Source of the DNA: a plasmid
DNA: 64,000 nucleotides
Assembly (NCBI RefSeq): GCF_056712565.1
Contig: NZ_JBWXXM010000004.1
Reading direction: 5' to 3' (one strand)
The notes beneath the pieces are model-generated. The model saw only the letters and a program-made list of their open reading frames with translations, made no database searches and was not told the DNA's origin. Positions 6,160 through 57,890 of this stretch are shown one piece after another (position 1 is the first letter of the stretch; the number at the start of each line of letters is the position of its first letter). Position numbers and translations under genes: made by a program.

Positions 6160-6176
6160 ATTGCTCTAATGTATTG
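6160..6176 (+). promoter_or_regulatory. C1 operator-like 17-mer upstream of lpa-position gene
   Basis: attgctctaatgtattg, 13/17 to the P1 C1 operator consensus ATTGCTCTAATAAATTT. Confidence 0.4.
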
Positions 6177-6246
6177 CTATTTCTTTAATCGAGGGTATTA
6201 TATTCCACGTTGATTAGTTGACATGGGCTAATCAGTAGGTGACAGG

Positions 6247-6699
6247 ATGTTACTTAACTGGCAGGGACGCCACTTCATGGAAATAAATCACTCACGAATA
6301 ACATCGTACGAGATTGCGGATTACATGATCCGCACTAAATCTCTTCTATCAGCGAAAGAACTCGCAGCAATTCTTGAAAAGGAATACCCGCATCTGGATG
6401 TCGATAAGCGCGATGTTTATCTGCGCTTAAAGGCTATCGCTGTGTCTAAGTATTCGTCTGTTTTGATTGATGACAGTACACGCCCACGTAGATTTCAGAT
6501 CCACTCTCTGAATCCTGAATTCTTTCGCCGCAGCCGCGCTCCGCGCCGGTTTGATGAAAAACTCCAGAACGAACTCTATATGACGCAGGACGAAAAGGAA
6601 CGCCGGGAGCACCAGCCTTGGGTGATGGCGCGTCAACTTTTCAATAAGGTGGTCCGTCAGCACCGTCATTACGGTAATGCCACATCCGCACGTATCTGA
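6247..6699 (+). CDS. late promoter activator (Lpa)-position protein, 150 aa
   Basis: Immediately upstream of pacA with a C1-operator-like site in front, as for P1 lpa; identity by synteny only. Confidence 0.45.
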   Translation: MLLNWQGRHFMEINHSRITSYEIADYMIRTKSLLSAKELAAILEKEYPHLDVDKRDVYLRLKAIAVSKYSSVLIDDSTRPRRFQIHSLNPEFFRRSRAPRRFDEKLQNELYMTQDEKERREHQPWVMARQLFNKVVRQHRHYGNATSARI

Positions 6700-6785
6700 T
6701 TGATTGCTTGCCCGTTCCGGGCCTTTTGACATGTGACTTTCGTTACCCTCGCGTCAAAAAGAGTTTTATACGAAAGGAAGCATAA

Positions 6786-7978
6786 GTGACCTGGGACGAT
6801 CACAAGAAGAATTTTGCTCGCCTGGCGCGAGATGGTGGTTACACCATCGCACAATATGCCGCCGAGTTTAATCTCAACCCAAACACCGCACGTCGTTATC
6901 TCCGTGCATTCAAAGAAGACACCGGAACAGCGGACAGCCGTAAGCCAAATAAGCCTGTCAGAAAACCACTAAAAAGCATGATCATTGATCACGCTAATGA
7001 TCAACGTGCAGGTGATCACATTGTGGCTGAAATGGCTGAAAAACAAAGAGTTAATGCTGTTGTCAGTGCCGCAGTCGAGAACGCGAAGCGCCAGAATAAG
7101 CGCATAAATGATCGTTCTGATGATCATGACGTGATCACCCGCGCCCACCGGACCTTACGTGATCGCCTGGAACGCGACACCCTGGATGATGATGGTGAAC
7201 GCTTTGAATTCGAAGCTGGCGATTACCTGATAGATAACGTTGAAGCGCGGAAGGCCGCGCGCGCTATGTTGCGTCGGTCCGGGGCTGATGTTCTGGAAAC
7301 CACTCTTCTGGAAAAGTCTCTCTCTCATCTCCTTATGCTGGAGAACGCCAGGGATACGTGTATTCGCTTGGTTCAGGAAATGCGCGATCAGCAAAAAGAC
7401 GATGATGAAGGAACTCCGCCTGAATACCGTATCGCGAGCATGCTAAACAGCTGTTCCGCGCAGATAAGCAGCCTGATCAACACCATTTACAGCATCCGGA
7501 ATAACTATCGAAAAGAAAGCCGGGAGGCGGAAAAGCACGCTTTGTCTATGGGGCAAGCTGGCATTGTAAGCTGGCATACGAACGAAAGCGTGAAAACAAC
7601 TGGTCAGTGCTGGAGGCAGCTGAATTCATCGAGGCGCATGGAGGGAAAGTACCGCCCCTGATGCTGGAGCAAATCAAAGCCGATCTGCGTGCTCCTAAGA
7701 CCAATACCGATGATGAGGAAAGGCAAACAGCCGTCGGTGGCCCTTCTCTTGAAGATCTGGACAAAGTTGCGCGAGAACGGGCCGCCAACCGCCGCGCCGA
7801 TGCCGCATTGTGGATTGAGCAGCGTAGGGAAGAAATCGCCGATATCGTTGATACAGGCGGTTATGGAGATGTTGATACTGAAGGTGTATCAAACGACCCA
7901 TGGCTGGAACAAGACCTGGACGAAGACGAGGAGGAAGACGAAGAAGTTACCCGCAAGCTATACGGGGATGATGATTAA
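6786..7978 (+). CDS. pacA: terminase small subunit PacA, reading frame broken in this sequence (ORFs 6786-7661 and 7607-7978)
   Basis: Contains the pac hexamer cluster; directly precedes pacB; total span 1193 nt (one short of a multiple of 3); the second frame reads continuously upstream to about 7580. Confidence 0.65.
6979..7137. other. pac packaging site: 4 + 3 TGATCA/G hexamers flanking the cleavage region
   Basis: TGATCA at 6979, 6986, 6998, 7013 and TGATCG/TGATCA at 7109, 7121, 7132; each contains a Dam GATC; the 4+3 layout is that of P1 pac. Confidence 0.75.
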
Positions 7979-9462
7979 TGGCCAGAAGTTGCGTAACGGA
8001 TCCACGTTGGCGCGAGCTGGTGGCGCTATATCGTTATGACTGGATTGCTGCCGCTGATGTTTTGTTCGGCAAAACACCTACCTGGCAGCAGGATCTGATT
8101 ATTGAGTCTGTGCAGGAACAGGGTAGCAAGACATCTGTTTCGTCTGGTCACGGTACCGGGAAATCAGACATGACTTCTATCATGATCATGTTGTTCATAA
8201 TCATGTATCCAGGTGCCCGTGCCATTATCGTTGCGAACAAAATTCAGCAGGTAATGACCGGTATATTCAAGTACATCAAGATAAACTGGGCTACTGCCAC
8301 CAGCCGTTTCCCATGGCTTGCTGATTATTTTGTTCTGACAGAAACCGCTTTCTATGAGATTACTGGTAAAGGTGTATGGACTGTAGTACCGAAGGGCTTT
8401 CGTCTGGGAAGTGAAGAAGCTCTCGCCGGTGAACACGCAGATCATCTTCTGTATATTATCGATGAAGCCTCCGGTGTCAGTGATAGAGCTTTCGGTATCA
8501 TCACCGGTGCTCTTACCGGACAGGATAACCGCATCTTATTGCTGTCACAGCCTACACGCCCAAGCGGCTATTTCTACGATACACACCATAAACTGGCCAA
8601 GCGTCCTGGTAACCCTGATGGCGTTTATACGGCGATCACGCTTAACAGTGAGGAATCACCGTTGGTAACGCCAGCATTTATCAAAATGAAGCTGGCGGAG
8701 TACGGCGGGCGTGATAACCCTATGTACATGATTAAGGTACGCGGCCTATTCCCTAAATCACAGGATGGCTTCCTTCTTGGACGTGATGAGGTTGAACGTG
8801 CGACGCGGCGGAAAGTCAAGATTGCCAAAGGATGGGGCTGGCTTGCATGTGTGGACGTTGCTGGTGGTACGGGACGGGATAAGTCCGTTATCAATATCAT
8901 GATGGTGTCCGGCCAGAGAAATAAACGCCGTGTAATCAACTATCGAATGCTGGAATACACAGACGTTACAGAAACGCAGCTTGCCGCCAAAATTTTCGCA
9001 GAATGTAATCCTGAGCGATTCCCAAATATCACCATAGCGATAGACGGCGATGGGCTGGGTAAAGCAACGGCGGATCTGATGTACGAGTATTATGGTATTA
9101 CCGTACAGCGTATACGCTGGGGTAAAAAGATGCATAGCCGTGAAGATAAGAGCCTGTACTTTGATAAACGTGCTTATGCCAACGTTCAAGCCGCAGAGGC
9201 CGTAAAATCTGGTCGTATGAGACTGGATAAGGGTAATGAAACTATTGAGGAAGCGTCGAAAATCCCTGTAGGGATTAACTCCGCAGGTCAATGGAAGGTG
9301 ATGAGTAAGGAGGATATGAAGAAAAAACTCAACCTGCACTCACCAGACCATTGGGATACATATTGTTTCGCTATGCTGGCGGATTATGTTCCCCAGGATG
9401 AAGTGCTTAGCGTCGAAGACGAAGCGCAGGTTGATGAAGCTCTGGCATGGCTTAATGAATAA
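7978..9462 (+). CDS. pacB: terminase large subunit PacB
   Basis: 494-aa product; follows pacA; terminase-like ATPase region. Confidence 0.85.
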
Positions 9463-9486
9463 CTCATTGACCATGCCGGATGGAAA

Positions 9487-10338
9487 CTATTGCGCGCTTT
9501 CGGGGTTGTCGTTTACTGGCTGCCCTTTCTTAGTTTTACGGCTGCGCGTAACTGATGCGGCTGATTTGACCTTTTTCTCTTCGCGAGTGATGGCAATTTG
9601 TTTTTTTACATTTTCAATATCTGCCAGGCGATATATTTTTGCCTGCGGCCAGCGGTCGCAGATGATCGGTTCTATAGAGTCATAAAGGCTAAATTTTGCT
9701 TTCTCGAATTCACCGTTGATGATAATTCCATCACGGAGAGTTTCATCGCAGATAAACACACCACATAGCGGCACATGGTAACTAACTGATTTACCATCAT
9801 TGTAGTTAGGGCTACTAGAAATGTAATGGACGCGCAGCATTGTTTCGCTAAAGCCGTGTACGCGCATACGGAATTTTTCATCCTCCGGGTACTGCTTCAT
9901 TAGCTCTTTTGTTGCTTCCAGGTTCTCTATGTATTTCGCACTGTGCTCATTGATCCCTGCGCTTTTCTGGATGCGAATGTCCTTATCAATCAGATGAATA
10001 ATGCGGCCAGCGGTCATGTTGACGCTGTTCACAGCTTCTGTCTGATAAGTCGTAACCTTACGCACACCGCGAAGGATGTTAGGTACTGGATATAAAATAG
10101 TCTTTGGGATATTGAGGTCTGGGTACTGTTCCAGTTCCCGCGCCATTAAAGTCCATTTATCAATTTCAGCCTGAATGCTGTCAGTTTCTTTGAACGGCAG
10201 AACGACAACCGGGCGTACAGGACGACCGTCGCTGGCGGCATCAACGTGTTGGGCGCGTGCAACAGCTTTTTTTAGAAAGAGATCCCTGAAGCTGACGAAC
10301 TCCTGGTACAGTTGTTCGCCGTAGACATAATTTATCAT
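9487..10338 (-). CDS. c1: C1 repressor of lysogeny
   Basis: 283-aa product (length of P1 C1); convergent with pacB, downstream of coi, operators nearby. Confidence 0.85.
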   Translation of the reverse strand: MINYVYGEQLYQEFVSFRDLFLKKAVARAQHVDAASDGRPVRPVVVLPFKETDSIQAEIDKWTLMARELEQYPDLNIPKTILYPVPNILRGVRKVTTYQTEAVNSVNMTAGRIIHLIDKDIRIQKSAGINEHSAKYIENLEATKELMKQYPEDEKFRMRVHGFSETMLRVHYISSSPNYNDGKSVSYHVPLCGVFICDETLRDGIIINGEFEKAKFSLYDSIEPIICDRWPQAKIYRLADIENVKKQIAITREEKKVKSAASVTRSRKTKKGQPVNDNPESAQ

Positions 10339-10360
10339 TGATCCTCCTCCAGAATTGACA

Positions 10361-10403
10361 TGGCCAACAACTCACAGCGGATTACACTGGGAGTTGTTGG
10401 CCA
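10361..10403 (-). promoter_or_regulatory. perfect 13-bp inverted repeat in the coi-c1 intercistronic region
   Basis: tggccaacaactc ...17 nt... gagttgttggcca. Confidence 0.35.
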
Positions 10404-10448
10404 CCATTATAGAAGGATCCAACGAAAATAATAGATTTATTAGTGCAT

Positions 10449-10658
10449 TTATTGTGAGTCTGGCTGGTTAGTGGCCATGAGATATTCGATTGTGTCAGTG
10501 AGATCATCCAGGTCGTCTTGGGTGATGCGGTACTCCTGATTGGATATCTTTGAGTAGTGTTCAGCAATGGCGCGGGCAGCGTCGGTTTCGGCGGGGTCTA
10601 CAGATAAAGCGTTAGAGCAATGTCTAACGTCGTCGATGGTTGGTGGAATGAAAGCCAT
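10449..10658 (-). CDS. coi: Coi, C1 inactivator
   Basis: 69-aa product directly upstream of c1 on the same strand. Confidence 0.75.
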   Translation of the reverse strand: MAFIPPTIDDVRHCSNALSVDPAETDAARAIAEHYSKISNQEYRITQDDLDDLTDTIEYLMATNQPDSQ

Positions 10659-10896
10659 AATTATGCCTCACTGTATTGACAACACAGAGCCTGAAGCTCT
10701 GACCTACTGTTTCACCCATGATCCATGCTGGGGTAATCTAACAACATTGCGCTGTGTGTAAGATGAGCAATGCATAGCTGTAATGCCGTTGTATAAGGTT
10801 TCCCTGTTTGCTCATTTCCTTCTGAGCCGCTCTACAACGCTGAAGACACATTAAATAGTGAATCCAAAGTCGTATTACGAAACGGCGGCAAAACTA

Positions 10897-10913
10897 TAAT
10901 TTATTAGAGCAAT
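10897..10913 (-). promoter_or_regulatory. C1 operator (Op99-type) upstream of coi-c1
   Basis: Plus strand taatttattagagcaat; reverse complement matches ATTGCTCTAATAAATT(A), 16/17. Confidence 0.55.
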
Positions 10914-10979
10914 TGTCAAACAACTATGAAAAACAATCCAGTTTTTGGCTGGTGGAGTGGGATTTTTCTCTCAAAATTT

Positions 10980-10996
10980 ATTGCTCTAATAATTCT
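10980..10996 (+). promoter_or_regulatory. C1 operator-like 17-mer
   Basis: attgctctaataattct, 15/17 to consensus. Confidence 0.5.
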
Positions 10997-11029
10997 TGAT
11001 TTTTATGCACAGCTGGACGTAAACTCCTC

Positions 11030-11063
11030 TTCAGACCTAATAACTTCGTATAGCATACATTAT
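11030..11063. other. loxP site-specific recombination site
   Basis: Exact 34-bp ATAACTTCGTATAGCATACATTATACGAAGTTAT (13-bp inverted repeats plus 8-bp spacer). Confidence 0.97.
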
Positions 11064-11171
11064 ACGAAGTTATCTTAAGGGTTATTGAACATGATCAATT
11101 TACCTGTAAATCCATACAGTTCAATACCTTATCAGGTCAAATAGTGATCACTTGATCATTTGATCAAGGTT

Positions 11172-11230
11172 GCGCTACGTAAAATCTGTGAAATGTTGGC
11201 AGTGTTAGTGCTCCAGATTTCGCGTAGCGC
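11172..11230. promoter_or_regulatory. 17-bp imperfect inverted repeat pair in the cra/cre leader
   Basis: gcgctacgtaaaatctg ...25 nt... cagatttcgcgtagcgc (15/17 complementary); preceded by four GATC within 85 bp. Confidence 0.4.
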
Positions 11231-11262
11231 ACTTAGCACCACCAATCAATCAGAGGTGAAAA

Positions 11263-11484
11263 ATGGGATATTCAGCTGCTAAAGTGTCCACTCATATTGA
11301 GCTTGAGAAAAACCGTGGTTACTGGCGGGCAAAAGGGTTTGATCGTGATAGTTGTCAACTGTCATTATCGCGCGGTGAAGAGAAAATAGAACGCACGCGC
11401 GGTCGCTGGCGTTTCTATGACGAGAACCATAAACAGGTAAAGGCAGAGCCGATCCTGTACACTTTACTTAAAACCATTATCTGA
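11263..11484 (+). CDS. Cra-position small protein (cre-associated function), 73 aa
   Basis: 73-aa ORF ending 8 nt before cre. Confidence 0.5.
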   Translation: MGYSAAKVSTHIELEKNRGYWRAKGFDRDSCQLSLSRGEEKIERTRGRWRFYDENHKQVKAEPILYTLLKTII

Positions 11485-11491
11485 GTGTTAA

Positions 11492-12523
11492 ATGTCCAAT
11501 TTACTGACCGTACACCAAAATTTGCCTGCATTACCGGTCGATGCAACGAGTGATGAGGTTCGCAAGAACCTGATGGACATGTTCAGGGATCGCCAGGCGT
11601 TTTCTGAGCATACCTGGAAAATGCTTCTGTCCGTTTGCCGATCGTGGGCGGCATGGTGCAAGTTGAATAACCGGAAATGGTTTCCCGCAGAACCTGAAGA
11701 TGTTCGCGATTATCTTCTATATCTTCAGGCGCGCGGTCTGGCAGTAAAAACTATCCAGCAACATTTGGGCCAGCTAAACATGCTTCATCGTCGGTCCGGG
11801 CTGCCACGACCAAGTGACAGTAATGCTGTTTCACTGGTCATGCGACGGATCCGAAAAGAAAACGTTGATGCCGGTGAACGTGCAAAACAGGCACTGGCGT
11901 TCGAACGCACTGATTTCGACCAGGTTCGTTCACTCATGGAAAATAGCGATCGCTGCCAGGATATACGTAATCTGGCATTTCTGGGGATTGCTTATAACAC
12001 CCTATTACGTATAGCCGAAATTGCCAGGATCAGGGTTAAAGATATCTCACGTACTGACGGTGGGAGAATGTTAATCCATATTGGCAGAACGAAAACGCTG
12101 GTTAGCACCGCAGGTGTAGAGAAGGCACTTAGCCTGGGGGTAACTAAACTGGTCGAGCGATGGATTTCTGTCTCTGGTGTGGCTGATGATCCGAATAACT
12201 ACTTGTTTTGCCGTGTCAGAAAAAATGGTGTTGCCGCGCCATCTGCCACCAGCCAGCTATCAACTCGCGCCCTGGAAGGGATTTTTGAAGCAACTCATCG
12301 ATTGATTTACGGCGCTAAGGATGACTCTGGTCAGAGATACCTGGCCTGGTCTGGACACAGTGCCCGTGTCGGAGCCGCGCGAGATATGGCCCGCGCCGGA
12401 GTTTCAATACCGGAGATCATGCAAGCTGGTGGCTGGACCAACGTAAATATTGTCATGAACTATATCCGTAACCTGGATAGTGAAACGGGGGCAATGGTGC
12501 GCCTGCTGGAAGATGGCGATTAG
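11492..12523 (+). CDS. cre: Cre tyrosine recombinase
   Basis: 343-aa product MSNLLTVHQNLPALPVDATSDEVRKNLMDMFRDRQAFSEHTWKMLLSVCRSWAAWCKL... with catalytic Tyr context NVNIVMNYIR; adjacent loxP. Confidence 0.97.
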   Translation: MSNLLTVHQNLPALPVDATSDEVRKNLMDMFRDRQAFSEHTWKMLLSVCRSWAAWCKLNNRKWFPAEPEDVRDYLLYLQARGLAVKTIQQHLGQLNMLHRRSGLPRPSDSNAVSLVMRRIRKENVDAGERAKQALAFERTDFDQVRSLMENSDRCQDIRNLAFLGIAYNTLLRIAEIARIRVKDISRTDGGRMLIHIGRTKTLVSTAGVEKALSLGVTKLVERWISVSGVADDPNNYLFCRVRKNGVAAPSATSQLSTRALEGIFEATHRLIYGAKDDSGQRYLAWSGHSARVGAARDMARAGVSIPEIMQAGGWTNVNIVMNYIRNLDSETGAMVRLLEDGD

Positions 12524-12540
12524 CCGTTCATTTGCGCTTG

Positions 12541-12557
12541 ATTGCTCTAATTATTTG
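12541..12557 (+). promoter_or_regulatory. C1 operator-like 17-mer downstream of cre
   Basis: attgctctaattatttg, 14/17. Confidence 0.45.
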
Positions 12558-12573
12558 ATATTTATGGTGACGC

Positions 12574-12885
12574 ATGCGGAAGGATTTCAAAATAGACGGA
12601 AAATATGTGGTGCTGTCTGTAAGCTCTCAAATTCAGTCACCATCTGTCATTGTCACCGTAAAGTTGAGCGATAGGATGCCTGATATCGACTCGATATCTG
12701 TTGCGTTCCCCGTTAAAAGCATGCGGAGTGCTGAACATTTTGTGATGAATGCAACGGAGGAGGAAGCGCGGCGCGGGCTTACTAGAGTGATGGTGGAATT
12801 TGGCGAACTCCTGGGTAAGGTAAACAATGCCCTTTCAATCAGTTCAGCAAGATCCAAAGCGTTAACAGCTTCCATGATGAAATAA
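12574..12885 (+). CDS. hypothetical protein (103 aa), c8-position
   Basis: ORF track; operator-like site upstream; position only. Confidence 0.35.
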   Translation: MRKDFKIDGKYVVLSVSSQIQSPSVIVTVKLSDRMPDIDSISVAFPVKSMRSAEHFVMNATEEEARRGLTRVMVEFGELLGKVNNALSISSARSKALTASMMK

Positions 12886-12909
12886 AAAAAGCCTGGCAAG
12901 GAGCCAGGC
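12884..12909 (-). terminator. hairpin with A7/T7 tract, intrinsic-terminator-like for leftward transcripts
   Basis: aaaaaaa gcctggc aagga gccaggc; the U-tract is on the minus-strand side. Confidence 0.35.
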
Positions 12910-13016
12910 TGCACAAAAGAGCGGGTTTGTATTCCGCATCCAATCAATCAAGAAGGAGTATAGCACACAGGTACTGAAGTGAAAAAATGTGATTCGCGAT
13001 TAACAAAATATCTGCC

Positions 13017-13046
13017 ATTGCTCTAATTGATTGCTATAATTAAGCC
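13017..13046 (+). promoter_or_regulatory. overlapping pair of C1 operator-like sites upstream of ref
   Basis: attgctctaattgattg (14/17) overlapping attgctataattaagcc (11/17). Confidence 0.45.
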
Positions 13047-13100
13047 GCAGTTTTTGTCAACTACGAAGACGTTGCCATTACTTAACTCCTTGACATCATT

Positions 13101-13127
13101 GGCGGCCATTAGGCCGCCTTTTTTTTT
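13101..13127 (+). terminator. intrinsic terminator-like hairpin 6 nt upstream of the ref start codon
   Basis: ggcggcc atta ggccgcc followed by T9. Confidence 0.55.
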
Positions 13128-13132
13128 GCCAT

Positions 13133-13693
13133 ATGAAAACAATCGAACAAAAACTTGAACAGCGCCGCGAGTGGCAGAAGGCAGCCAGAGAACGAGCGAT
13201 CGCTCGGCAACGGGAAAAGTTGGCTGACCCCGCCTGGCGAGAATCGCAATATCAGAAAATGCGGGATTCTATCGACCGCCGTATCGCTAAACAGAAAGAG
13301 CGCCCACCAGCCAGCAAAACGCGGAAAAGTGCGGTAAAGATAAAATCTCGTGGCTTGAAGGGGCGAACATCGACAGCGGAGGAACGGAGCATCGCCAATG
13401 CTCTTGGCGCTCTCCCCTGCATTGCCTGCTACATGCATGGAGTAATATCTGAAGAGGTATCTCTGCACCATATCTCCGGTCGTACCGCGCCGGGTTGTCA
13501 CAAAAAGCAATTGCCCCTTTGTAGATGGCACCACCAGCATGCAGCACCGGCTGAAGTAAGAGAAAAATACCCCTGGCTGGTCCCTGTTCATGCCGATGGT
13601 GTGGTTGGAGGCAAGAAAGAATTCACCTTGCTGAACAAGTCAGAGATGGAGTTGCTGGCTGACGCCTATGAGATGGCAAACATCATGCACTAA
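13133..13693 (+). CDS. ref: Ref, HNH-family recombination enhancement endonuclease
   Basis: 186-aa product; HNH-like CYMHGVISEEVSLHHISG...CRWHH; P1 position after cre/c8. Confidence 0.85.
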   Translation: MKTIEQKLEQRREWQKAARERAIARQREKLADPAWRESQYQKMRDSIDRRIAKQKERPPASKTRKSAVKIKSRGLKGRTSTAEERSIANALGALPCIACYMHGVISEEVSLHHISGRTAPGCHKKQLPLCRWHHQHAAPAEVREKYPWLVPVHADGVVGGKKEFTLLNKSEMELLADAYEMANIMH

Positions 13694-13735
13694 TAAATAT
13701 ATTATTTTTAATCTGAAATAATTGACAACTGACAA

Positions 13736-14524
13736 GTGACTTCAGTCAGAATCATCACATGCCCGGTACGGATGGATCCCTTTTCAAATATTCCATGGAC
13801 GGCACAGTCTGAGTACCGGGCGCTACCTTCAGTTGTATTGCTAAGCCGCCGCTGGTGGCTTTTCTTTTTTGTAGGGGGCGCTATGGATAAGAAAATATGC
13901 GTTGTTTCGATGAGCGTCGGCAAACCGGCGTCAATGACTGCTGCATGGATCAACAATGAGCTAATAATGGCTGAGCGGACCAGCTACCCTGAACGCCGCC
14001 GCGATATGGAACTCCAGCTGCTGCGCGAATTGCGAGAAAAAGAGGAAAAGGGTTTTATCGTGCTGGTGGAAGAGGAAAACAGCTTTATTACTGGTCGAGT
14101 TGGCCAGCGTGTAAGGTTGCGCGATCCCTTCATGAACGGCAGGCCGGTACTAATTGAGGCAATGCAGATTTATAAGGAGCTGGAACGCCAGAAAGCAATC
14201 AAGTTACCGCGCAAGGAATCCGGCAAATACATTCTCCACCAAAGCATCTTCGATTCCGAACACGATAAAAAAGGCGATGAGTTTTTCAACATCAACTGGA
14301 GCGAAATAACGACAGAGCATGTTCTGACGTTGTTATGCTGCTTCGCAACAGAATACAACAACGTGGTAAGCGCAGACTACATCAGGGCAATGGCTGGAGA
14401 AGTTGAGGCCCGCCAAGAACCATCGTTACTAAGTCCACTGATTAACATAATTCTGGGCACCCAGATACTGGAACAAAAAAAAGTGCCGAAAGGGGTATTA
14501 ACAGGCAAGCATAATTATTTTTAA
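13736..14524 (+). CDS. hypothetical protein, mat-position (likely true start ATG 13883 behind GGGGG)
   Basis: ORF track; internal Met MDKKICVV preceded by gtagggggcgct. Confidence 0.4.
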   Translation: MTSVRIITCPVRMDPFSNIPWTAQSEYRALPSVVLLSRRWWLFFFVGGAMDKKICVVSMSVGKPASMTAAWINNELIMAERTSYPERRRDMELQLLRELREKEEKGFIVLVEEENSFITGRVGQRVRLRDPFMNGRPVLIEAMQIYKELERQKAIKLPRKESGKYILHQSIFDSEHDKKGDEFFNINWSEITTEHVLTLLCCFATEYNNVVSADYIRAMAGEVEARQEPSLLSPLINIILGTQILEQKKVPKGVLTGKHNYF

Positions 14525-14617
14525 CAATTACATACAGTAATTTTGTGGTTACATTCTCCATTGATTTTCTAACCGCTTTATCATTAGATGTAACAGCATG
14601 TAAATCATTTAAAATGG

Positions 14618-15754: not shown

Positions 15755-15760
15755 TTGCTT

Positions 15761-15790
15761 AATTTTGCCCGGTAATTCCGGGCAAAATTG
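15761..15790. terminator. bidirectional intrinsic terminator between the toxSAS gene and the lxc-position gene
   Basis: aa ttttgcccgg taatt ccgggcaaaa tt (10-bp stem) between convergent stops. Confidence 0.6.
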
Positions 15791-16039
15791 TCAATCTGCA
15801 TTCAGGAGCAATGCGTTATCTATGATGATCTGCTCCCATTCTTCGAATGCCCGATCGCGGACGCCCTGGGGAACACTGTTAGTTTTGAAATCGACCACCG
15901 TCCGCCATTTCCCGTCCGGGCGGTACATGCGCAGAGCTTTACTTCCCCCTTCCCTGCGCACCTCAACGTTATGCTTATCAGCAAACTCTTGTAATGCTCG
16001 TAGCGTCCCATGCTTTACTGTGTAGTATCGCTTTTTCAA
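15791..16039 (-). CDS. small protein (82 aa), lxc-position (modulator of C1 repression in P1)
   Basis: 82-aa ORF immediately downstream of the ulx-position gene and darB on the same strand; identity by synteny only. Confidence 0.4.
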   Translation of the reverse strand: MKKRYYTVKHGTLRALQEFADKHNVEVRREGGSKALRMYRPDGKWRTVVDFKTNSVPQGVRDRAFEEWEQIIIDNALLLNAD

Positions 16040-16476: not shown

Positions 16477-16509
16477 ATTATGCGACGCCCGGCGAACCGG
16501 GCGCTCCTG

Positions 16510-23277: not shown

Positions 23278-23343
23278 TGGTAATCCTTAACAAGTGACTA
23301 GTGTTAAATTCCGTTCAAACACGATGTGAATTATTCTAATTAA

Positions 23344-26074
<2,731 letters not shown>

Positions 26075-26087
26075 CCATCAAAAATAA

Positions 26088-39213: not shown

Positions 39214-39218
39214 TATAA

Positions 39219-41141: not shown

Positions 41142-41152
41142 ACCAACGTTTT
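41128..41152 (-). other. crossover site xs-8
   Basis: Plus strand gagccttcccccaaaccaacgtttt. Confidence 0.55.
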
Positions 41153-43155: not shown

Positions 43156-43166
43156 CAAGCATATCC

Positions 43167-43601: not shown

Positions 43602-43679
43602 GATTTTCCCTAATCAATGTTGTGAAGCCTCATTGTAAGATAAGTAACTTGTCACCCCGCCCTGCGGACGGGGTGATTG

Positions 43680-49724: not shown

Positions 49725-49805
49725 GATCTTATCGCCTACCGCTTCGGTTTAAGTTTTTCTTCCAGTTTCTCCAACAGGAAAAACGCATAGGATTCAGTGA
49801 GCCTT

Positions 49806-50687
49806 TCAGCGTCCTGAATCGGTATACCCCCATACAAAACCAGGTTGGACACTAAGGTCTGATAGCTTTTCAATCCCCACCTGTGGAATGAAGTCGGTAG
49901 CCCGAAAGGGCACCCACAGACGGGTATACGCACCCTCTGTGGACTCCTTTGTATCCTGGTTTGGGCATTTGTGCGGCGGGAGACGAAGACGCATTTCGCC
50001 TTTATCGATGTAGCACGGTAAACCATGTTCGAGCTTTTCATGAGCCACCCGGATGTGTGCCGCCAGCTTCATAAATTCAGTATCAATGGCCATCCGTTTG
50101 ATCGTTTCATAACGACGCTCAGCCTGCTCTTCACGAGTACCGCTAACATCGTTATAAAGTTCACACTGATAAGCGAATTCCCAAAAACGCAAATCAACGA
50201 TCGCTTCTTTGAATTCCGCGTCGTCTTCAGGTGGCAATGCTGCACGGCGCATCTCCAGCATTTCCATTGCCCAACCATCAAGCGGCACGATACGCCATTG
50301 ATAAGGCACGCCCTCTACAGACACCTCAATATCGTCAATGAACGGTTCCACTTCCAGGACCTGGATATCTTCAGCCAGAGCATTCATATCGCAATCGTAA
50401 TAATGCTCTTTACCGCAATGTTTACAGGTGTAGGTGAATGTCTCGACCGGTGTTTCACGGGAGCCAGTAAATATCCACCATAACGCGGTAATCCGGTCCT
50501 GCGCCGTCCATGTCAGGGGATCATATTTCGCGGGTTCAGCCAGCAAGGCTTTTAAATACGCCGTTGTCTGTTGTTCTTGTTCCTCCGGTGTTATCGAGTT
50601 GAAACGCATCGCATCAGCAATATTTGGCTGACGGAACTGGATCAATTCAGTTGGCCGCGATGGTAGCGGGAAAAGAGGTAAAAGCAT
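49806..50687 (-). CDS. putative morphogenetic protein (pmgB-position), 293 aa
   Basis: ORF track; synteny. Confidence 0.35.
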   Translation of the reverse strand: MLLPLFPLPSRPTELIQFRQPNIADAMRFNSITPEEQEQQTTAYLKALLAEPAKYDPLTWTAQDRITALWWIFTGSRETPVETFTYTCKHCGKEHYYDCDMNALAEDIQVLEVEPFIDDIEVSVEGVPYQWRIVPLDGWAMEMLEMRRAALPPEDDAEFKEAIVDLRFWEFAYQCELYNDVSGTREEQAERRYETIKRMAIDTEFMKLAAHIRVAHEKLEHGLPCYIDKGEMRLRLPPHKCPNQDTKESTEGAYTRLWVPFRATDFIPQVGIEKLSDLSVQPGFVWGYTDSGR

Positions 50688-50701
50688 CCTTGCTCCTTAA
50701 T

Positions 50702-51313
50702 TTAAAGCGAAAAACTAAAGCCCAGAAGGGAAGCTAAAGAACTTGAGGATTGGTTAAACGTGCTGTGCAATGCGAAGGTCATTGGGAATGACTTAAATTC
50801 CGTAACCTGATCCCGCGCATAGGTGACATCGCCGGTAGTGACCGGGAATACCGTCATCTCATTTTCCAGTTTGGTTAAACCGGAGGACAGCAACCGATAA
50901 ATACGCACATTGAGCAAATATTTAGACGGTATATTCCCGGTACCGTCCGGATTGATCACCCGACTTTTTGCCGTCTTAAACCAGTCCAAAACGAGGCCAT
51001 CAACGGTATCCCTGACCATCATTGTTATCTGCCCAGGCGAACGCTCCGTTGGCTGAAGGATATTCCCTCCGCCGATTTTAATCGTTTCATATTCGATGCT
51101 GTAATCGTGGTAGGTAATGTCTTTAGCAAAGAAGTCTGCCCCCTCCAGACCATCAACTTCGACAGAGAACTGCCATCCTTGCGCGAACAGCATTTTGTTC
51201 ATGATGATTGACGTCAGCTTACCAACTTCCCGCTCACCAACGCCGGAGCCAAATAATGTCGTCGTTAATGCCGAAGATACATAAGACTTTACTGAAGCAA
51301 CATTAAGCCCCAT
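50702..51313 (-). CDS. tail tube protein (tub-position), 203 aa
   Basis: ORF track; synteny. Confidence 0.4.
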   Translation of the reverse strand: MGLNVASVKSYVSSALTTTLFGSGVGEREVGKLTSIIMNKMLFAQGWQFSVEVDGLEGADFFAKDITYHDYSIEYETIKIGGGNILQPTERSPGQITMMVRDTVDGLVLDWFKTAKSRVINPDGTGNIPSKYLLNVRIYRLLSSGLTKLENEMTVFPVTTGDVTYARDQVTEFKSFPMTFALHSTFNQSSSSLASLLGFSFSL

Positions 51314-51323
51314 ATCAGCCCCC

Positions 51324-51914
<591 letters not shown>

Positions 51915-52043
51915 TTACCCGATTCTACGAGTTGTCATTTGTTACCGGTCAGTCTACACATTTCAGATGCTGCGTTAAAAAACCCAAGTACTTCAAGTAG
52001 CACATCGTCATCAACACCCAGCCCCAAGATACGGTGATAAAAT

Positions 52044-53078
52044 TCAAGCCTTAAGAGGCTTTGTGTATGTTCGTGTAATCCATCCAGTAATAAACTCGTC
52101 CCCTGATTTAACCTGCACGAAAAGCCATTGGCGATCTTTTTTATCTAAAACAGCCACTATAGTATTTTTGCCAATGCATTCAATCACCTCACTATTTATA
52201 GAAGGACTGACGTGTAATCTTACGTTCTCACCAGTTATAAAACGAAAACCATTGAGATCTTCCCAACTAATTTCTTTGTTTTCTTTAATTAATTGTTGTT
52301 TTGATATTGGTTTATCCTCAAACAGAGATATAAAATATGATTCTGCCTTGTGTATTCCCAGCAAGGTTTTCTCTTTTCCGTAATCAATAAAAGCACCAAA
52401 CACAACTTGAGAAAATATAACCATTAGTAACCATTGCAGTGGATAAGGAAGCTCTTTAAATGAATCAACAAACTTTGAGCTAGGTTTATTTAATCCTTTA
52501 TTTTGAACATTACTTTTGGTGTGTGATGTTTCAGTAGCACCTTCAGCATAAGCCTGCGCAATAGATGAAATCCCCTGCTCTATTATTTGATGTAATGAAG
52601 CATTTCTTGTTCTAGCATAGTGATCTAGTACTTTCTTTATGTCTTGGCTTACATCTATTTTATAACTTGCACTTTGTTGTAATTCTTTAAGTATCGCTTG
52701 CATGTTATTTAAACCAGCTTGCTTATTAAGCACCTCAAGCTGTTTTCGTAATGGCATAGCTATTTCGGCCTGTTTCCTTAGCATTTGAATATATCTATTT
52801 GCATCATGAGGGAAAAGAGCCTGAGTCTGTTTCTGTAAAATCGCGATATGTTCACGATACTTGCTGCCTATTCCAGCCAAGTTCGGTATACTAGCCAATT
52901 GTTTTCGAAGAGAGTTACTAATTACAGCTTGTCTATTCAATCTTGGCATATTTTGAAAAGAATGTTTTTCTATTCCTAATTGTTTTTGCAAGATCGCTAC
53001 GTGATCTTTGTATGATGGAATGAGCACTGACTGTTTATACAGCAACTTCAACTCATTAGAATTAGTAATTTTTGTCAT
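52044..53078 (-). CDS. membrane-anchored protein with N-terminal ILQKQ-type repeats and C-terminal SH3-like domain (sim-position cluster)
   Basis: 344-aa; repeats HVAILQKQ / HIAILQKQ / LRKQ; TM segment LPYPLQWLLMVIFSQVVFGAFIDYG; C-terminal GENVRLHVSPSINSEVIECIGKNTIVAVLDKKDRQWLFVQVKSGDEFITGWITRTY; AT-rich codon usage. Confidence 0.5.
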   Translation of the reverse strand: MTKITNSNELKLLYKQSVLIPSYKDHVAILQKQLGIEKHSFQNMPRLNRQAVISNSLRKQLASIPNLAGIGSKYREHIAILQKQTQALFPHDANRYIQMLRKQAEIAMPLRKQLEVLNKQAGLNNMQAILKELQQSASYKIDVSQDIKKVLDHYARTRNASLHQIIEQGISSIAQAYAEGATETSHTKSNVQNKGLNKPSSKFVDSFKELPYPLQWLLMVIFSQVVFGAFIDYGKEKTLLGIHKAESYFISLFEDKPISKQQLIKENKEISWEDLNGFRFITGENVRLHVSPSINSEVIECIGKNTIVAVLDKKDRQWLFVQVKSGDEFITGWITRTYTKPLKA

Positions 53079-53152
53079 ATTATTCCATTTCTATAATAGA
53101 ATATTACGCAACCAATGTTTTATTGATTGCGTTAATCTTTAACACAGAAAGA

Positions 53153-53629
53153 TCATTTGCCTCGTTTAATACATCCATCCATTTTGGCTTGTTGATACAA
53201 CTTACTTAGCCCAGAAAGAGGGAATGTAGCAATTTTTTCATTATCAACATAAGCATCAATCATATTAGCATTTGAATCTGCTGCATCTTGCCAAAAGGCA
53301 TACCACCAAGAATCTCCAACCATTGATCCAAGATTGCTAAAAGGATATTGATCACCATCTATAGTTAATACTATTTTATTCTTGTCAGCATTATACTCTT
53401 TTTTATTATTCGACGAACTTAGCAACAAGCCTAAACTACCTGCACTATCTGGTGAACCATACATGAATCCCATATCACATAAAAAACTTATCTTATCACC
53501 ATTATGATTATGGATTGTATATTCTCTCCCCCCTCTCTCTTCAATTACATTCCATTGTAGAGGATCAATTTTTGCAAATGTTCCTGCTGAAACTAACGAT
53601 ACAAATAATAAAAACCATCTCATATTCAT
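53153..53629 (-). CDS. secreted/periplasmic protein with signal peptide (sim-position cluster)
   Basis: N-terminus MNMRWFLLFVSLVSAGTFAKIDP (n-h-c signal peptide with AxA-like cleavage context). Confidence 0.5.
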   Translation of the reverse strand: MNMRWFLLFVSLVSAGTFAKIDPLQWNVIEERGGREYTIHNHNGDKISFLCDMGFMYGSPDSAGSLGLLLSSSNNKKEYNADKNKIVLTIDGDQYPFSNLGSMVGDSWWYAFWQDAADSNANMIDAYVDNEKIATFPLSGLSKLYQQAKMDGCIKRGK

Positions 53630-53651
53630 TCTTTTCGCTTCTTATCTGTAA

Positions 53652-54002
53652 TTATTCTGCAATATCATTTGCCCATTGCACGGCAGCAAAATGAGTACCC
53701 AAACCACTCAGGAAAGCAATTACCCCCAAAACAATACTTGCTGCTGTTGATTCAAACAAAGTACCAATACTATAGCCAATAGCTCCCCATACTAAGCTAA
53801 ATACAATCATCAATGGTATTGCTAGAAATTTTATTCTTAAACTAAAAATCAGTCCAAGAAAAGAACCGCCAAAGGCCCACCATGATTTAGACATTAAACC
53901 TATCAGTATTGACAGAATTCCTATTTCAATAAAGAGAATATTAGATTGCTCTTCATTGAATTTCGCATTTGTTACACCTTTACGAACATGTTCAGATGAC
54001 AT
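53652..54002 (-). CDS. small polytopic membrane protein (sim-position cluster)
   Basis: 116-aa, three hydrophobic helices (ILFIEIGILSILIGLM, FLGLIFSLRIKFLAIPLMIVFSLVWGAIGY, AASIVLGVIAFLSGLG). Confidence 0.45.
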   Translation of the reverse strand: MSSEHVRKGVTNAKFNEEQSNILFIEIGILSILIGLMSKSWWAFGGSFLGLIFSLRIKFLAIPLMIVFSLVWGAIGYSIGTLFESTAASIVLGVIAFLSGLGTHFAAVQWANDIAE

Positions 54003-54148
54003 GATTAACTATCTCCTGCCACAGATAAAACGCCTTAAAATAACATTTTGTAGCATAAAGTTTCACCATGCAATGGTCAAAATCTTTGACCCATATCAAT
54101 TAAACTCATACATTTTAGTTACCAGAGAAATAATTTACATGGTTGCAA

Positions 54149-54165
54149 GTTGCTCTAATTATTTT
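54149..54165 (+). promoter_or_regulatory. C1 operator-like 17-mer in the promoter region of the sim-position cluster
   Basis: gttgctctaattatttt, 14/17. Confidence 0.4.
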
Positions 54166-54292
54166 ATTTTTTTAGCTTCATATGCTACATTAACTTGCTT
54201 GCGTGCTAATGCATTTTCGGTTTATCCTAAACAGGCATCTTAGTAAAACGGATGCCGGGATTGGAACCCCGGATAATGCAAAAGGCGACATA

Positions 54293-54314
54293 GACGCCAA
54301 AAGCGTCTTTTTTT
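54293..54314 (+). terminator. intrinsic terminator on the plus strand with no protein gene upstream
   Basis: gacgc caaaa gcgtc followed by T7. Confidence 0.5.
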
Positions 54315-54717
54315 GTGTCATGCCATCGCACAACCATACGTAGCACATAGCTCCGAGATCAATGGTAGTGCTGGCTGGGCTGCCGAAAGGCAGGCCGGTT
54401 CCCTTTTGCGCCGGTAGTTCCAACCCAGTCAGTGCTACCGCCATTGAGATTGGAACCTCACGCGGTAGCTCCTTAAATTAGCAAAAGGAGGCTGCCATTG
54501 TGGCTACTATCCCTACCCCTACTCATCCTGAATTTATCTGGCGCTTTTACTCCTGCCAAAAACACCACTATCACTTCGTTATCGCAGCAACAGAAGACGA
54601 AGCACGCTCTCAATTGCCTGATGGCCCCTGCATTTTTACTGCCCGTTTTTCAACTAACTCGCGCAATTCACTTAGTTACTGGAGCCTCCCCTTCTCTGCC
54701 GACGTTCAGGGGGGTTT

Positions 54718-55755
54718 ATGAAAACACCTCTCGTCACCCGTAATGAAATAGCCGAAGCGATCGCCTTGCATACTGCCTGTATGCCGACACGGGAGATCCC
54801 CGGCGCAATTGCTAACTATTTCATGATAACCAGACGTTTTTATACCCGAACAGATAAGGCTGTGATCAACAGGCTACTGATAGCCGAGATCAGGGATTAT
54901 TTGATTGAACAAGGACGTCTACGTTACGCAACAGTGGCAGCAGAAATGAGAAAGGAGGCACATAGAATGACCGGTAATAATTTAAATGTTGAAAAAACAG
55001 CACCTGTTGCTTCAGCTACGCCATCACCAGCTGTGAATGTTATCTCCAACACTGGAGACACAATCGACAGCCAGACACTGTTAAAGATGGTCAATGAAGC
55101 GCGTAAGTTATGTGGGGAACCAGAGGTTCGGAACAACAAATTCATCGAAAAAATACTCGATGAGCTTGATGGTGAGCACTACACAAAAAGTGTAGTGGAA
55201 AAAATGAACAAAACATCAATGCTTGTCATAACCATGACTTTCAAACAAGCCCTGCGAGTCGCCGCGCGCGAGTCAAAAGCGGTCCGCCGTTCGCTGATCG
55301 ACAAACTGGAAGAATTACAGCAGGCAAACTCCCCTACCCCATCGATCCCCCAGACATTACCAGAAGCCCTACGCCTGGCTGCCGAGTTAGCAGAACAGAA
55401 AATGCAGTTGGAACAACAGCTGGTGGCCGCAGCCCCTAAAGTCGATTTTGCCGACCGGGTATCAGTGGCCAATGGAATCCTGATCGGGAACTTTGCAAAG
55501 GTCGTTGGACTTAAGCAAAACGCCCTTTTCTCATGGTTGCGCCAGAACGGCATTCTCATGGCTTTTGGTGCGCGCAAAAACGTACCGCGCCAGCAGTACA
55601 TTAACGCCGGGTATTTCACGGTGAAAGAAGTGGTGCTGGATGATGAAAATGGCTACCAGATACGGCTGACGCCCCAATTAACGGGTAAAGGCCAGCAGTG
55701 GTTAACTCGCAAGCTACTTGATGCTGGTTTGTTAAAACCAGTAGCAATAGGTTAA
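54718..55755 (+). CDS. KilAC-domain antirepressor-like protein (rlfA-position)
   Basis: 345-aa; C-terminal 130 aa (PQTLPEALRLAAELAEQK...GKGQQWLTRKLLDAGLL) paralogous to the C-terminus of the next gene; GGGG-ATG start context. Confidence 0.55.
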   Translation: MKTPLVTRNEIAEAIALHTACMPTREIPGAIANYFMITRRFYTRTDKAVINRLLIAEIRDYLIEQGRLRYATVAAEMRKEAHRMTGNNLNVEKTAPVASATPSPAVNVISNTGDTIDSQTLLKMVNEARKLCGEPEVRNNKFIEKILDELDGEHYTKSVVEKMNKTSMLVITMTFKQALRVAARESKAVRRSLIDKLEELQQANSPTPSIPQTLPEALRLAAELAEQKMQLEQQLVAAAPKVDFADRVSVANGILIGNFAKVVGLKQNALFSWLRQNGILMAFGARKNVPRQQYINAGYFTVKEVVLDDENGYQIRLTPQLTGKGQQWLTRKLLDAGLLKPVAIG

Positions 55756-55776
55756 CAAAAGAAAAAACCTGCCAGC

Positions 55777-55800
55777 AAACTGGCAGGTTTCTGAGCAGAT
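55777..55800 (+). terminator. intrinsic terminator after rlfA-position gene
   Basis: A6 cctgccag caaa ctggcagg tttctg. Confidence 0.65.
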
Positions 55801-55832
55801 CGTCCAACCCGATCTGGATCGGGTCAGAAAAA

Positions 55833-55849
55833 TTTGCTCTAATAAATTT
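55833..55849 (+). promoter_or_regulatory. C1 operator upstream of rlfB-position gene
   Basis: tttgctctaataaattt, 16/17 to consensus. Confidence 0.55.
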
Positions 55850-55918
55850 CGTTTTCTAAGTGCAAAGAATCACCTTTTCGAGCTGGTGATTGAAGGTTGA
55901 TGCAAATTTGGAGAAAAA

Positions 55919-56719
55919 ATGCAACAAACATTCAATGCGGATATGAATATATCAAACCTTCATCAAAATGTCGATCCTTCAACCACTCTGCCTGTTATTT
56001 GTGGTGTTGAAATTACGACCGACCGCGCTGGCCGTTACAACCTTAATGCTCTACACAGAGCGAGCGGACTCGGTGCCCATAAAGCGCCAGCTCAATGGCT
56101 AAGAACGCTGTCAGCCAAACAGCTTATCGAAGAGCTTGAAAAAGAAACTATGCAGAATTGCATAGTTTCGTTCGAAGGCCGTGGCGGCGGTACGTTTGCC
56201 CATGAATTGCTCGCTGTGGAGTACGCAGGCTGGATTTCTCCCGCGTTTCGGCTGAAGGTAAACCAGACATTTATCGACTATCGAGCCGGAAGATTACAAC
56301 CTGCTATTCCGCAGAGTCTCCCTGAAGCTCTCCGTTTGGCTGCCGACCTGGCAGAGCAAAAGCAACGGCTGGAGCAAAAAATGCTTATGGATGCGCCTAA
56401 AGTCGAATTCGCCGAACGCGTTGCTACCGCCAGCGGGGTTCTAATCGGCAACTATGCCAAAGTGCTCGGCCTGGGCCAAAACTATCTCTTCACCTGGTTG
56501 CGTGATAACGGAATTCTGATCGCAACCGGTGAACGCAGGAACGTCCCCAAACAAGAATACATATCCCGTGGGTATTTCACCCTTAAAGAAACCGTGATCG
56601 ATACAAGCAATGGAAGCAGGATTTCTTTCACGACTCGTATAACCGGCAAAGGTCAGCAGTGGCTGATGAAGCGATTGCTTGATGCTGGTGTGCTGGTACC
56701 TGTCGCGGCAACGCGCTAA
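55919..56719 (+). CDS. KilA-N / KilAC antirepressor-like protein (rlfB-position)
   Basis: 266-aa; N-terminal KilA-N-like region (GRYNLNALHRASGLGAHKAPAQWLRT) plus KilAC-like C-terminus shared with the preceding gene. Confidence 0.55.
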   Translation: MQQTFNADMNISNLHQNVDPSTTLPVICGVEITTDRAGRYNLNALHRASGLGAHKAPAQWLRTLSAKQLIEELEKETMQNCIVSFEGRGGGTFAHELLAVEYAGWISPAFRLKVNQTFIDYRAGRLQPAIPQSLPEALRLAADLAEQKQRLEQKMLMDAPKVEFAERVATASGVLIGNYAKVLGLGQNYLFTWLRDNGILIATGERRNVPKQEYISRGYFTLKETVIDTSNGSRISFTTRITGKGQQWLMKRLLDAGVLVPVAATR

Positions 56720-56748
56720 CAGACGTAGTAAGAACCACCAGCATTGTA

Positions 56749-57594
56749 ATGCTGGCTAAAGTCACTTTCCTGAGCTGTATAACGATGAGCGATTTTACTT
56801 TTTCTGGCTATGAATTGGCCTGCTTTGTAACACACTCCGGTCTATCTCGTAGCGCCGGGCATATCCTGTCGCAATGTGCAAATCTAGCGGCAACAACCAG
56901 TGAATACTTCATTCACAAGCCTCACCGCCTGATCGCGGCAGAAACTGGTTATAGCCAATCAACCGTCGTTCGTGCATTCCGTGAAGCTGTAAACAAAGGA
57001 ATTCTGTCTGTAGAGATTGTTATCGGCGATCACCATGAACGTCGTGCTAACCTGTACCGGTTTACACCATCCTTTTTGGCCTTCGCACAACAAGCCAAAA
57101 ATGCGCTGATTGAAAGCAAATTAAAGATCTCTTCAGCGGCAACCAAGGTTAAAGCTGTTCTCGCTAAGACATTGGCTTTATTTAATTTTTTATCCACACC
57201 CCCATGTCAAAATGATACCCCCTCCCCCTGTCAGGATGACGTGGCAATAAAGAATAAGAAGTCACAAGTTAAAAAAACAAAAAGATCAGTTTCCGGCGGT
57301 GCCGGAACGACCAGACTCAAAAAATTGACTTCATGGATCGCTGAGGTAAAAGCAAAGGCTGACAATCTGCGGTTATCCAAAAAACGCGCTCAAAAACATG
57401 AGTTCAAGCAGAAAGTAGAGGCGGCAGCGCGGAAATATGCTTACCTGAAGAACAAGCGTTCTCCTGATATTGGCGGGGTATCAAACTTCGATAATCTGCC
57501 GCATTGCATGACGGTAAACGAAGCTCTTAATGCGGTTTTAGCCAAAAATAAAGATAACGAACAATGGGGTATACCGGCAGGATTCAGAGGGTGA
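56749..57594 (+). CDS. putative DNA-binding protein with N-terminal winged-helix/HTH (pmgF-position)
   Basis: 281-aa; HTH-like GYSQSTVVRAFREAVNKGIL; Lys-rich C-terminal half. Confidence 0.4.
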   Translation: MLAKVTFLSCITMSDFTFSGYELACFVTHSGLSRSAGHILSQCANLAATTSEYFIHKPHRLIAAETGYSQSTVVRAFREAVNKGILSVEIVIGDHHERRANLYRFTPSFLAFAQQAKNALIESKLKISSAATKVKAVLAKTLALFNFLSTPPCQNDTPSPCQDDVAIKNKKSQVKKTKRSVSGGAGTTRLKKLTSWIAEVKAKADNLRLSKKRAQKHEFKQKVEAAARKYAYLKNKRSPDIGGVSNFDNLPHCMTVNEALNAVLAKNKDNEQWGIPAGFRG

Positions 57595-57890
57595 TAGATT
57601 GCTCTAATCTGGAGTCACCTGGCGTTTTCAGTTTGAGGTCGGAGATGCAATCTGATTTTTTACAGTTAGCGATCGCTTTTGCAGGATATGTTTGTATTGG
57701 CTTCTGTGTATACATGATCAGCCGAAAAATGCTTGTCGATATCGACCGCAAAGAACGAGCAGAGGAGATCTTAGTATGGATTTTCTTTGGCGCGGTCTGG
57801 CCATTAGGGATCATGTTTGCTGCTACATTTCTTCTGATGTGGATATTCACCCTTCCAGGTGATTTCTATAGAAAAAAAGCCAGACATTGA
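57564..57890 (+). CDS. small membrane protein (probable true start ATG 57645), preceded by an ATTGCTCTAAT operator half-match at 57598
   Basis: MQSDFLQLAIAFAGYVCIGFCVYMI...WIFFGAVWPLGIMFAATFLLMWIF: two or three TM helices. Confidence 0.4.
   Translation: MGYTGRIQRVIDCSNLESPGVFSLRSEMQSDFLQLAIAFAGYVCIGFCVYMISRKMLVDIDRKERAEEILVWIFFGAVWPLGIMFAATFLLMWIFTLPGDFYRKKARH

Follow-up and report, generated by a model that had tools for sequence, protein, structure and literature searches.

C1 operator-like sites in a P1-like phage-plasmid and their bearing on the expression of its cargo genes

Introduction

A stretch of 64,000 nucleotides (nt) from the plasmid contig NZ_JBWXXM010000004.1 (NCBI RefSeq assembly GCF_056712565.1), hereafter the window, carries scattered 17-mers that resemble the operators of the phage P1 repressor C1. 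Two questions arise from them. Are these words the operators of a P1-type C1 regulon, and can one read from their presence or absence which cargo genes are expressed in the lysogen? An earlier note on this DNA had said yes to both. We argue that the 17-mers are very probably the operators at which C1, the master repressor of a P1-like plasmid prophage, acts, and that they were inherited in the places usual for P1. We also argue that one could not tell directly from whether a cargo gene of a P1-like phage-plasmid has an operator whether it is repressed or expressed.

The C1 protein of P1 binds as a monomer to an asymmetric 17-bp site, and its co-repressor Lxc tightens the binding. The system is similar to lambda CI and its OR and OL operators in that one master repressor keeps lysogeny and autoregulates its own synthesis. 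Lambda CI binds as dimers to palindromic operators clustered at two loci, whereas the P1-type repressor acts as monomers on asymmetric 17-bp sites found genome-wide. Unlike in lambda, the late genes of P1-type phages are kept off indirectly, via the C1-controlled activator Lpa. A dispersed set of 22 operators and the same consensus as used here have been described (PMC8546580). The dispersed C1 regulon is already known textbook P1 biology, real but ordinary. Finding its operator set in the window would confirm that the P1-type prophage is intact and that its immunity circuitry works, and its significance lies mainly in annotation.

Operator-like sites at P1 positions

By its sequence the window is a P1-like (Punavirus) phage-plasmid that is colinear with P1 at 94-98% identity. 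Its megablast neighbours are P1, P7, SJ46, RCS47 and vB_EcoM-673R5 (identity 94-99%). The window was scanned with the asymmetric 17-bp consensus ATTGCTCTAATAAATTT and with a position weight matrix (PWM) of the 20 operators that are annotated in AF234172, the curated GenBank record that served as P1 reference for operators and promoters. Dinucleotide shuffles were the controls, and the map of blocks shared with P1 was made by blastn.

Ten sites have at most three mismatches to the consensus, where 0.21 are expected and none of 100 shuffles reaches ten. Counted as matches, there are 10 sites with at least 14 of 17 (0.34 expected) and 14 with at least 13 of 17 (3.0 expected). By PWM, 11 sites score at least 16 bits (0.2 expected) and 13 score at least 12 bits (1.7 expected). 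There is no enrichment in the window at 12 or more matches (30 observed, 22 expected) or at 11 or more (109 observed, 126 expected). Compared with scrambled sequence, as the earlier note had proposed, the strong sites are therefore far above background while the class of 11-12 matches is at background. Nine of the 13 sites of the full set lie in non-coding DNA, which makes up 9.5% of the window by a crude greedy call of open reading frames (ORFs; binomial P ~3e-7). Two of these ORF calls, c8 and a small ORF after repL, are wrong, and mending them raises the intergenic share to about 11 of 13. Every strong site is co-oriented with the gene directly downstream.

Eleven sites are positionally homologous to AF234172 protein_bind features labelled 'phage repressor C1' (Olpa, Oc1a to Oc1e, Oref, Omat, Ossb, OrepL and Oc4), and most of them, all but Oc4, are also identical in sequence to their P1 counterparts (Table 1). 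The site upstream of c8 and one inside darB have no annotated counterpart in P1. The next P1 operator leftward, OpmgT, would sit about 90 nt before the window start. The Oref core is unchanged in 80 of 83 relatives.

The repressor itself is conserved. Its identity of 282/283 residues to P1 C1.100 is the reason why its binding specificity is taken as that of P1. The genes coi, ant1 and lxc and the C4 antisense RNA (54358-54445, plus strand, downstream of Oc4) are all encoded in the window. The repressor, Lxc, the antirepressors coi and ant1/2, and C4 RNA are features in common with the C1 system of P1 and P7. With this repressor and the eleven annotated positional homologues, the dispersed P1 C1 regulon that the earlier note had recognized is borne out. 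Each of its coordinates holds a match of the kind described, and its nine sites all lie outside genes. Its list lacked Oc1a and Oc1b, Oc1c, Omat and the 14/17 site inside darB, and it assigned the site at 55833 to rlfB. That site fronts kilA-repL, and no rlfA or rlfB homologue is found in the window.

By transfer from the P1 annotation, Olpa, Oc1ab, Oc1d, Oc1e, Oref, Ossb, Oc4 and OrepL overlap or adjoin promoters; P1 Olpa, for example, overlaps the -35 element of Plpa. Omat, the Orlf remnant and the c8-upstream site overlap no predicted promoter. Since C1 sites overlap or abut sigma-70 promoters, C1 would shut off lpa, kilA-repL, ref, mat, ssb and P4cre. It would also shut off one of the two c4-icd-ant promoters and its own coi-c1 operon, with Oc1ab mediating c1 autoregulation as assigned in P1. 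The late structural genes, among them the tail-fibre cassette array, have no operator and would be silent for want of Lpa.

The same positions are used in relatives. Of 716 sites scoring at least 14 bits in 196 related IMG/VR loci (1.74 Mb), 682 fall in the same positional classes. A PWM scan of ON470615, the closest complete relative and our proxy for the whole replicon, places all other operators of P1, namely Odmt, Oban a/b, O26, Oppp, OpmgRa/b and OpmgT, in synteny.

Several points weigh against this reading or narrow it. That C1 binds and represses in this element is carried over from P1, and so are the promoter overlaps, many of the P1 promoters being themselves just predicted. The Oc4 region is unalignable with P1, and its promoter context comes from a consensus scan. 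The sole predicted c8 promoter is about 60 nt upstream of the c8-upstream site. The Orlf remnant (2.7 bits), in front of the small membrane protein gene, may be dead. The darB-internal site is indistinguishable from chance combined with coding-sequence conservation. It lies within the first 25 codons of darB, faces prt and is 85 nt upstream of the late promoter LPpro. It is conserved in P1 and relatives, with an operator-compatible ATTGCACTAAT in five of them. Among 61 relatives the flanking coding DNA is equally conserved, which makes the conservation of the site uninformative, and about 0.2 chance matches are expected at its score.

Table 1. Operators, candidate sites, genes, late promoters and P1-colinear blocks in the window. 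P1 coordinates are those of AF234172.
Feature	Position	Strand	Description
Olpa (former Op94)	6160-6176	+	ATTGCTCTAATGTATTG; 14/17, 19.5 bits; identical to P1 89904-89920; controls lpa (late-promoter activator)
Oc1ab (Op99a/b), bivalent	10422-10449	Oc1a 10433-10449 (-), Oc1b 10422-10438 (+)	identical to P1 94166-94193
Oc1c (Op99c)	10605-10621	-	inside coi; 14.6 bits; identical to P1 94349-94365
Oc1d (Op99d)	10897-10913	-	16/17, 26.2 bits; identical to P1 94641-94657; controls P1coi (imcA/imcB-coi-c1 transcript)
Oc1e (Op99e)	10980-10996	+	15/17, 25.2 bits; identical to P1 94724-94740; adjoins P4cre
c8-upstream candidate	12541-12557	+	ATTGCTCTAATTATTTG; 14/17, 22.4 bits; 17 nt upstream of c8 start codon; unannotated in P1/P7
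Oref (former Op1/Op2a)	13017-13033	+	14/17; identical to P1 1962-1978; controls ref
Look-alike at P2ref	13030-13046	+	ATTGCTATAAT; 12/17; P1 annotates TATAAT at 1980-1985 as P2ref -10
Omat (former Op2/Op2b)	13684-13700	+	20.8 bits; identical to P1 2628-2644; overlaps ref stop codon
darB-internal candidate	23207-23223	+	ATTGCCCTAATGTATTT; 14/17, 16.2 bits; also in P1 at 17166
Ossb (Op21)	27056-27072	+	16/17, 26.4 bits; identical to P1 21015-21031; controls ssb
Oc4 (Op51), diverged immI variant	54149-54165	+	GTTGCTCTAATTATTTT; 14/17, 18.8 bits; faces c4-icd-ant operon
OrepL (Op53)	55833-55849	+	16/17, 24.4 bits; identical to P1 49810-49826; controls kilA-repL (lytic replicon)
Orlf (Op55) remnant	57598-57614	+	ATTGCTCTAATCTGGAG; 11/17, 2.7 bits; only 11-nt core ATTGCTCTAAT retained
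c1 repressor gene	9487-10338	-	product 282/283 identical (99.6%) to P1 C1.100
toxSAS	14618-15754	+	CapRel-SJ46-like fused toxin-antitoxin in res/mod hotspot; RelA_SpoT PF04607 E=3e-12; PDB 7ZTB
lxc (bof), C1 co-repressor gene	15791-16039	-	inside segment 98% identical to P1 9752-22531; P1 lxc 9750-9998
LPpac	6731		late promoter
LPmat	13734		late promoter
LPpro	23292		late promoter
LPdar	35564	-	late promoter
LPs	43632-43650	-	late promoter; Lpa-dependent, upstream of tail-fibre cassette array
Colinear block	3787-11056		P1 87530-94800
Colinear block	11057-14525		P1 1-3469
Colinear block	15793-28566		P1 9752-22531
Colinear block	28598-36177		P1 24246-31836
Colinear block	42409-51943		P1 37095-46629
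Colinear block	54527-57608		P1 48497-51585
Colinear block	58799-64000		P1 53412-58613
Segment largely non-P1	1-3786		P1-like stretches short only
Segment without P1 homology	14526-15792		378-aa RelA/SpoT protein (toxSAS)
Segment without P1 homology	36178-42408		resolvase-family invertase and tail-fibre C-terminal cassette array
Segment without P1 homology	51944-54526		three minus-strand genes at sim position and diverged c4 leader
Segment without P1 homology	57609-58798		81-aa membrane protein and 210-aa ORF, replacing rlfA/rlfB

Operators and the state of the cargo genes

The segments without P1 homology are read as cargo or variant modules. The earlier note predicted from the operator map which cargo is expressed in the lysogen (toxSAS) and which is repressed. 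In its extended form this reading takes the map as sufficient to sort the cargo, with toxSAS and the cassette array expressed and the sim-position cluster and the small membrane protein repressed. Some observations agree with such sorting. There is no PWM-quality site in the 93-nt spacer between mat and toxSAS or in the cassette array, CapRel-SJ46 is functional from its own upstream DNA (see below), and each of the two other cargo modules does have an operator next to it (54149 and 57598). Taken module by module, this sorting is nevertheless unlikely to hold, because a tier of Lpa-dependent late promoters and read-through from neighbouring operons would intervene between the operator map and the state of the cargo.

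LPs drives the R-S tail-fibre operon, of which the cassette array forms the distal part. LPs needs Lpa, and the lpa gene is controlled by Olpa. The array would therefore be silenced indirectly, without any operator of its own. The array is large and shufflon-like (36213-41700), with a resolvase-family invertase beside it (36213-36641, minus strand). Four of its cassettes stand on the plus strand and five on the minus strand, about 440-515 nt apart and with shared conserved ends of 50-60 nt; the single C-segment of P1 is far simpler.

The toxSAS protein has an N-terminal RelA/SpoT synthetase domain fused to a C-terminal antitoxin/sensor domain, as expected of a CapRel. Residues 4-374 match the CapRel-SJ46 chain (PDB 7ZTB) with E=5e-185, and PADLOC matches it to PDC-S33. 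CapRel-SJ46 of the Salmonella phage SJ46 occupies the same mat-capRel-lxc slot, although the DNA of the two slots is just 85.7% identical and the upstream spacer has a 10-nt indel. The slot is a hotspot at the position of P1 res/mod, and the close relative pSBF22b has a SIR2-family gene there. It had been stated that no operator stands in front of toxSAS. This is right for PWM-quality sites, but mat and toxSAS, which run in the same direction, have Omat upstream of them, and there is a 13/17 match at the start codon of toxSAS, overlapping it (14612, minus strand). This match was rejected as an operator, as it has a broken core and belongs to a chance-level class. The mat gene carries Omat and LPmat, toxSAS follows on the same strand after 93 nt, and neither a clear sigma-70 promoter nor a terminator-like site was found in the spacer. 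Lytic-phase read-through from mat into toxSAS is thus possible. CapRel-SJ46 is functional from 100-200 bp of its native upstream DNA in phage-free Escherichia coli (PMC9712102). Constitutive expression of toxSAS in the lysogen is plausible for this reason, by analogy with CapRel-SJ46, and not because of the operator map.

The site at 54149 had been assigned to the sim-position cluster. This cluster is transcribed away from it, while the operator is co-oriented with c4-icd-ant, and the P1 annotation has Op51 control c4. A rightward promoter-like site at 54134-54162 overlaps Oc4 in the consensus scan; the sole leftward promoter-like site that could be used for the sim-position cluster (54080-54052) is about 70 nt away from 54149. 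Oc4 differs from P1 Op51 at 4 of 17 positions because immI and the sim region have been replaced, and the same Oc4 variant is common to eight relatives. Between Oc4 and the C4 antisense RNA there is an isrK-like RNA element (RF01394, 58 bits; 54235-54313, plus strand) in an immI leader that is unalignable with P1.

In the place of simABC, three minus-strand genes (52044-54002) encode proteins of 116, 158 and 344 aa, the last with a C-terminal SH3 domain. The segment is low in G+C (34.5% over 52001-54000). Most of it is present in 27 E. coli plasmids, at least 10 of which have it at 100% identity. PADLOC and PHROGs assigned no function to the sim-position or rlf-position cargo, and none of the three sim-position genes matches PADLOC. 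The best PLSDB plasmids share the sim-position cluster and have other cargo and a different cassette arrangement.

The site at 57598, in front of the small membrane protein gene, is a truncated one. The rlfA/rlfB module has been replaced from directly after the operator core, which reduces Orlf to that core; P1 homology stops at 57608, and the right half reads CTGGAG where P1 has TATAAC. At 11 of 17 matches the site counts as meaningful only because the exact 11-nt core stands at the P1 Orlf position. The predicted PrlfA of P1 lies about 94 nt downstream of Orlf. All 46 of 46 repL-anchored relatives have the truncated variant. Exactly at the end of the core (57598-57608), P1-like DNA gives way to the module found in place of rlfA/rlfB, which makes this point a mosaic junction. 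It was considered whether mosaic breakpoints generally fall on operators, and this was rejected; a single breakpoint, that at Orlf, coincides with one.

Taken together, the prediction of which cargo is on or off is not supported for any of its modules: the array would be silent without an operator, toxSAS lies behind Omat and LPmat, the site at 54149 faces away from the sim-position genes, and that at 57598 is truncated. Cargo can arrive with its own operator in other elements. In 22 IMG/VR loci a T/CTTGCTCTAATAAATTG operator (L078 4740, for example) precedes a second icd/roi-type module between pacB and c1, and in three related loci a perfect consensus operator is divergent from Omat. The idea of operator-controlled cargo is therefore reasonable in general, to be judged case by case. 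An extra icd/roi-type module with its own operator and a c4/ant-like leader is also found in ON470615.2 (32967-34291); the window is without this module.

Operators and promoter elements that resemble them

The operator core TGCTCTAAT resembles the extended -10 element TGnTATAAT, and some or all of the matches could be promoter elements. For one match this is what was found. The earlier note paired 13017 with 13030 as twin operators, of which 13017 is Oref and 13030 was rejected as an operator, being the extended -10 (TGnTATAAT) of P2ref. In 83 relatives the TG and TATAAT at 13030 are invariant, whereas the operator-critical C5 varies (c, t or a); an operator needs ATTGC. At the c8-upstream site, too, P1 and P7 have TGCTATAAT. 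As an account of the whole set, promoter elements are nonetheless very improbable. In the true operators the C at the position equivalent to -11 is incompatible with a good -10, and ATTGC is conserved even though an extended -10 has no need of it. Besides, the curated P1 record lists eleven of the sites as C1 operators. At 13017-13046, Oref and the P2ref -10 form tandem near-identical 13-mers, ATTGCTCTAATTG and ATTGCTATAATTA, that differ at the same C/A position, which suggests that operator and promoter at ref arose by duplication.

That the matches are chance AT-rich words in AT-rich intergenic DNA has next to no probability: the 11-12/17 matches are at background and the weak cargo-adjacent sites at 53087, 54099 and 58721 (10-12 bits) are within the expected number, but for the strong sites the shuffle controls, the excess by PWM score and the exact positional homology with P1 operators refute it. 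The sites at 53087 (10.1 bits) and 54099 (9.9 bits) were rejected as operators, their number being at chance level and their cores broken. The same applies to 58721 (minus strand, 11.9 bits), which precedes the 210-aa ORF by 16 nt.

A candidate operator upstream of c8

With the C1 operators taken as inherited in their P1 positions, the c8-upstream site and its C/A polymorphism are the sole new element, a modest candidate at the level of annotation. The PWM score of the site exceeds those of 8 of the 20 annotated P1 operators. It keeps the complete core ATTGCTCTAAT and has two differences only from the annotated Oref, both in the right half. At the corresponding place (P1 1485-1501) P1 and P7 read ATTGCTATAAT, with A for the near-invariant C at position 7.

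Seventy IMG/VR contigs, sampled through an anchor that is independent of the site and lies in the 3' end of cre, show how this site varies. The full core is present in 62, the A variant in seven, P1 and P7 included, and ATTGTTCTAAT in one. The core is conserved next to a highly variable spacer, the 15 nt that separate it from the cre stop codon, and stands out as a clear footprint. With A the sequence is TGCTATAAT, a perfect extended -10, and this form is found on at least two flanking haplotypes. We infer that C1 probably controls c8 in the majority of natural P1-like elements, the allele of laboratory P1 and P7 being a minority one. Such control would be biologically sensible for a lysogeny-establishment gene. 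Repression could possibly act as a roadblock or on an unrecognised promoter. A literature search found no paper describing an operator upstream of c8.

We put forward tentatively, at somewhat less than even chances, that most natural P1-like plasmids have in this site a real C1 operator ('Oc8') that had gone unannotated, and that C or A at position 7 toggles it between the operator core TGCTCTAAT and the extended -10 TGCTATAAT. If this is true, the lysogeny-establishment gene c8 would be under C1 shut-off, reference P1 would have an atypical, C1-blind allele, and the tandem Oref/P2ref would show the same operator-promoter duality. As the majority state in natural relatives and absent from the P1 annotation, the site would be worth cataloguing if C1 binding is confirmed.

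A further RNA element lies in the segment that replaces rlfA/rlfB. Between the gene of the 81-aa membrane protein and the 210-aa ORF there is a strong Rfam match to sok/CssrC (RF01794, 97 bits; 57903-58077, plus strand).

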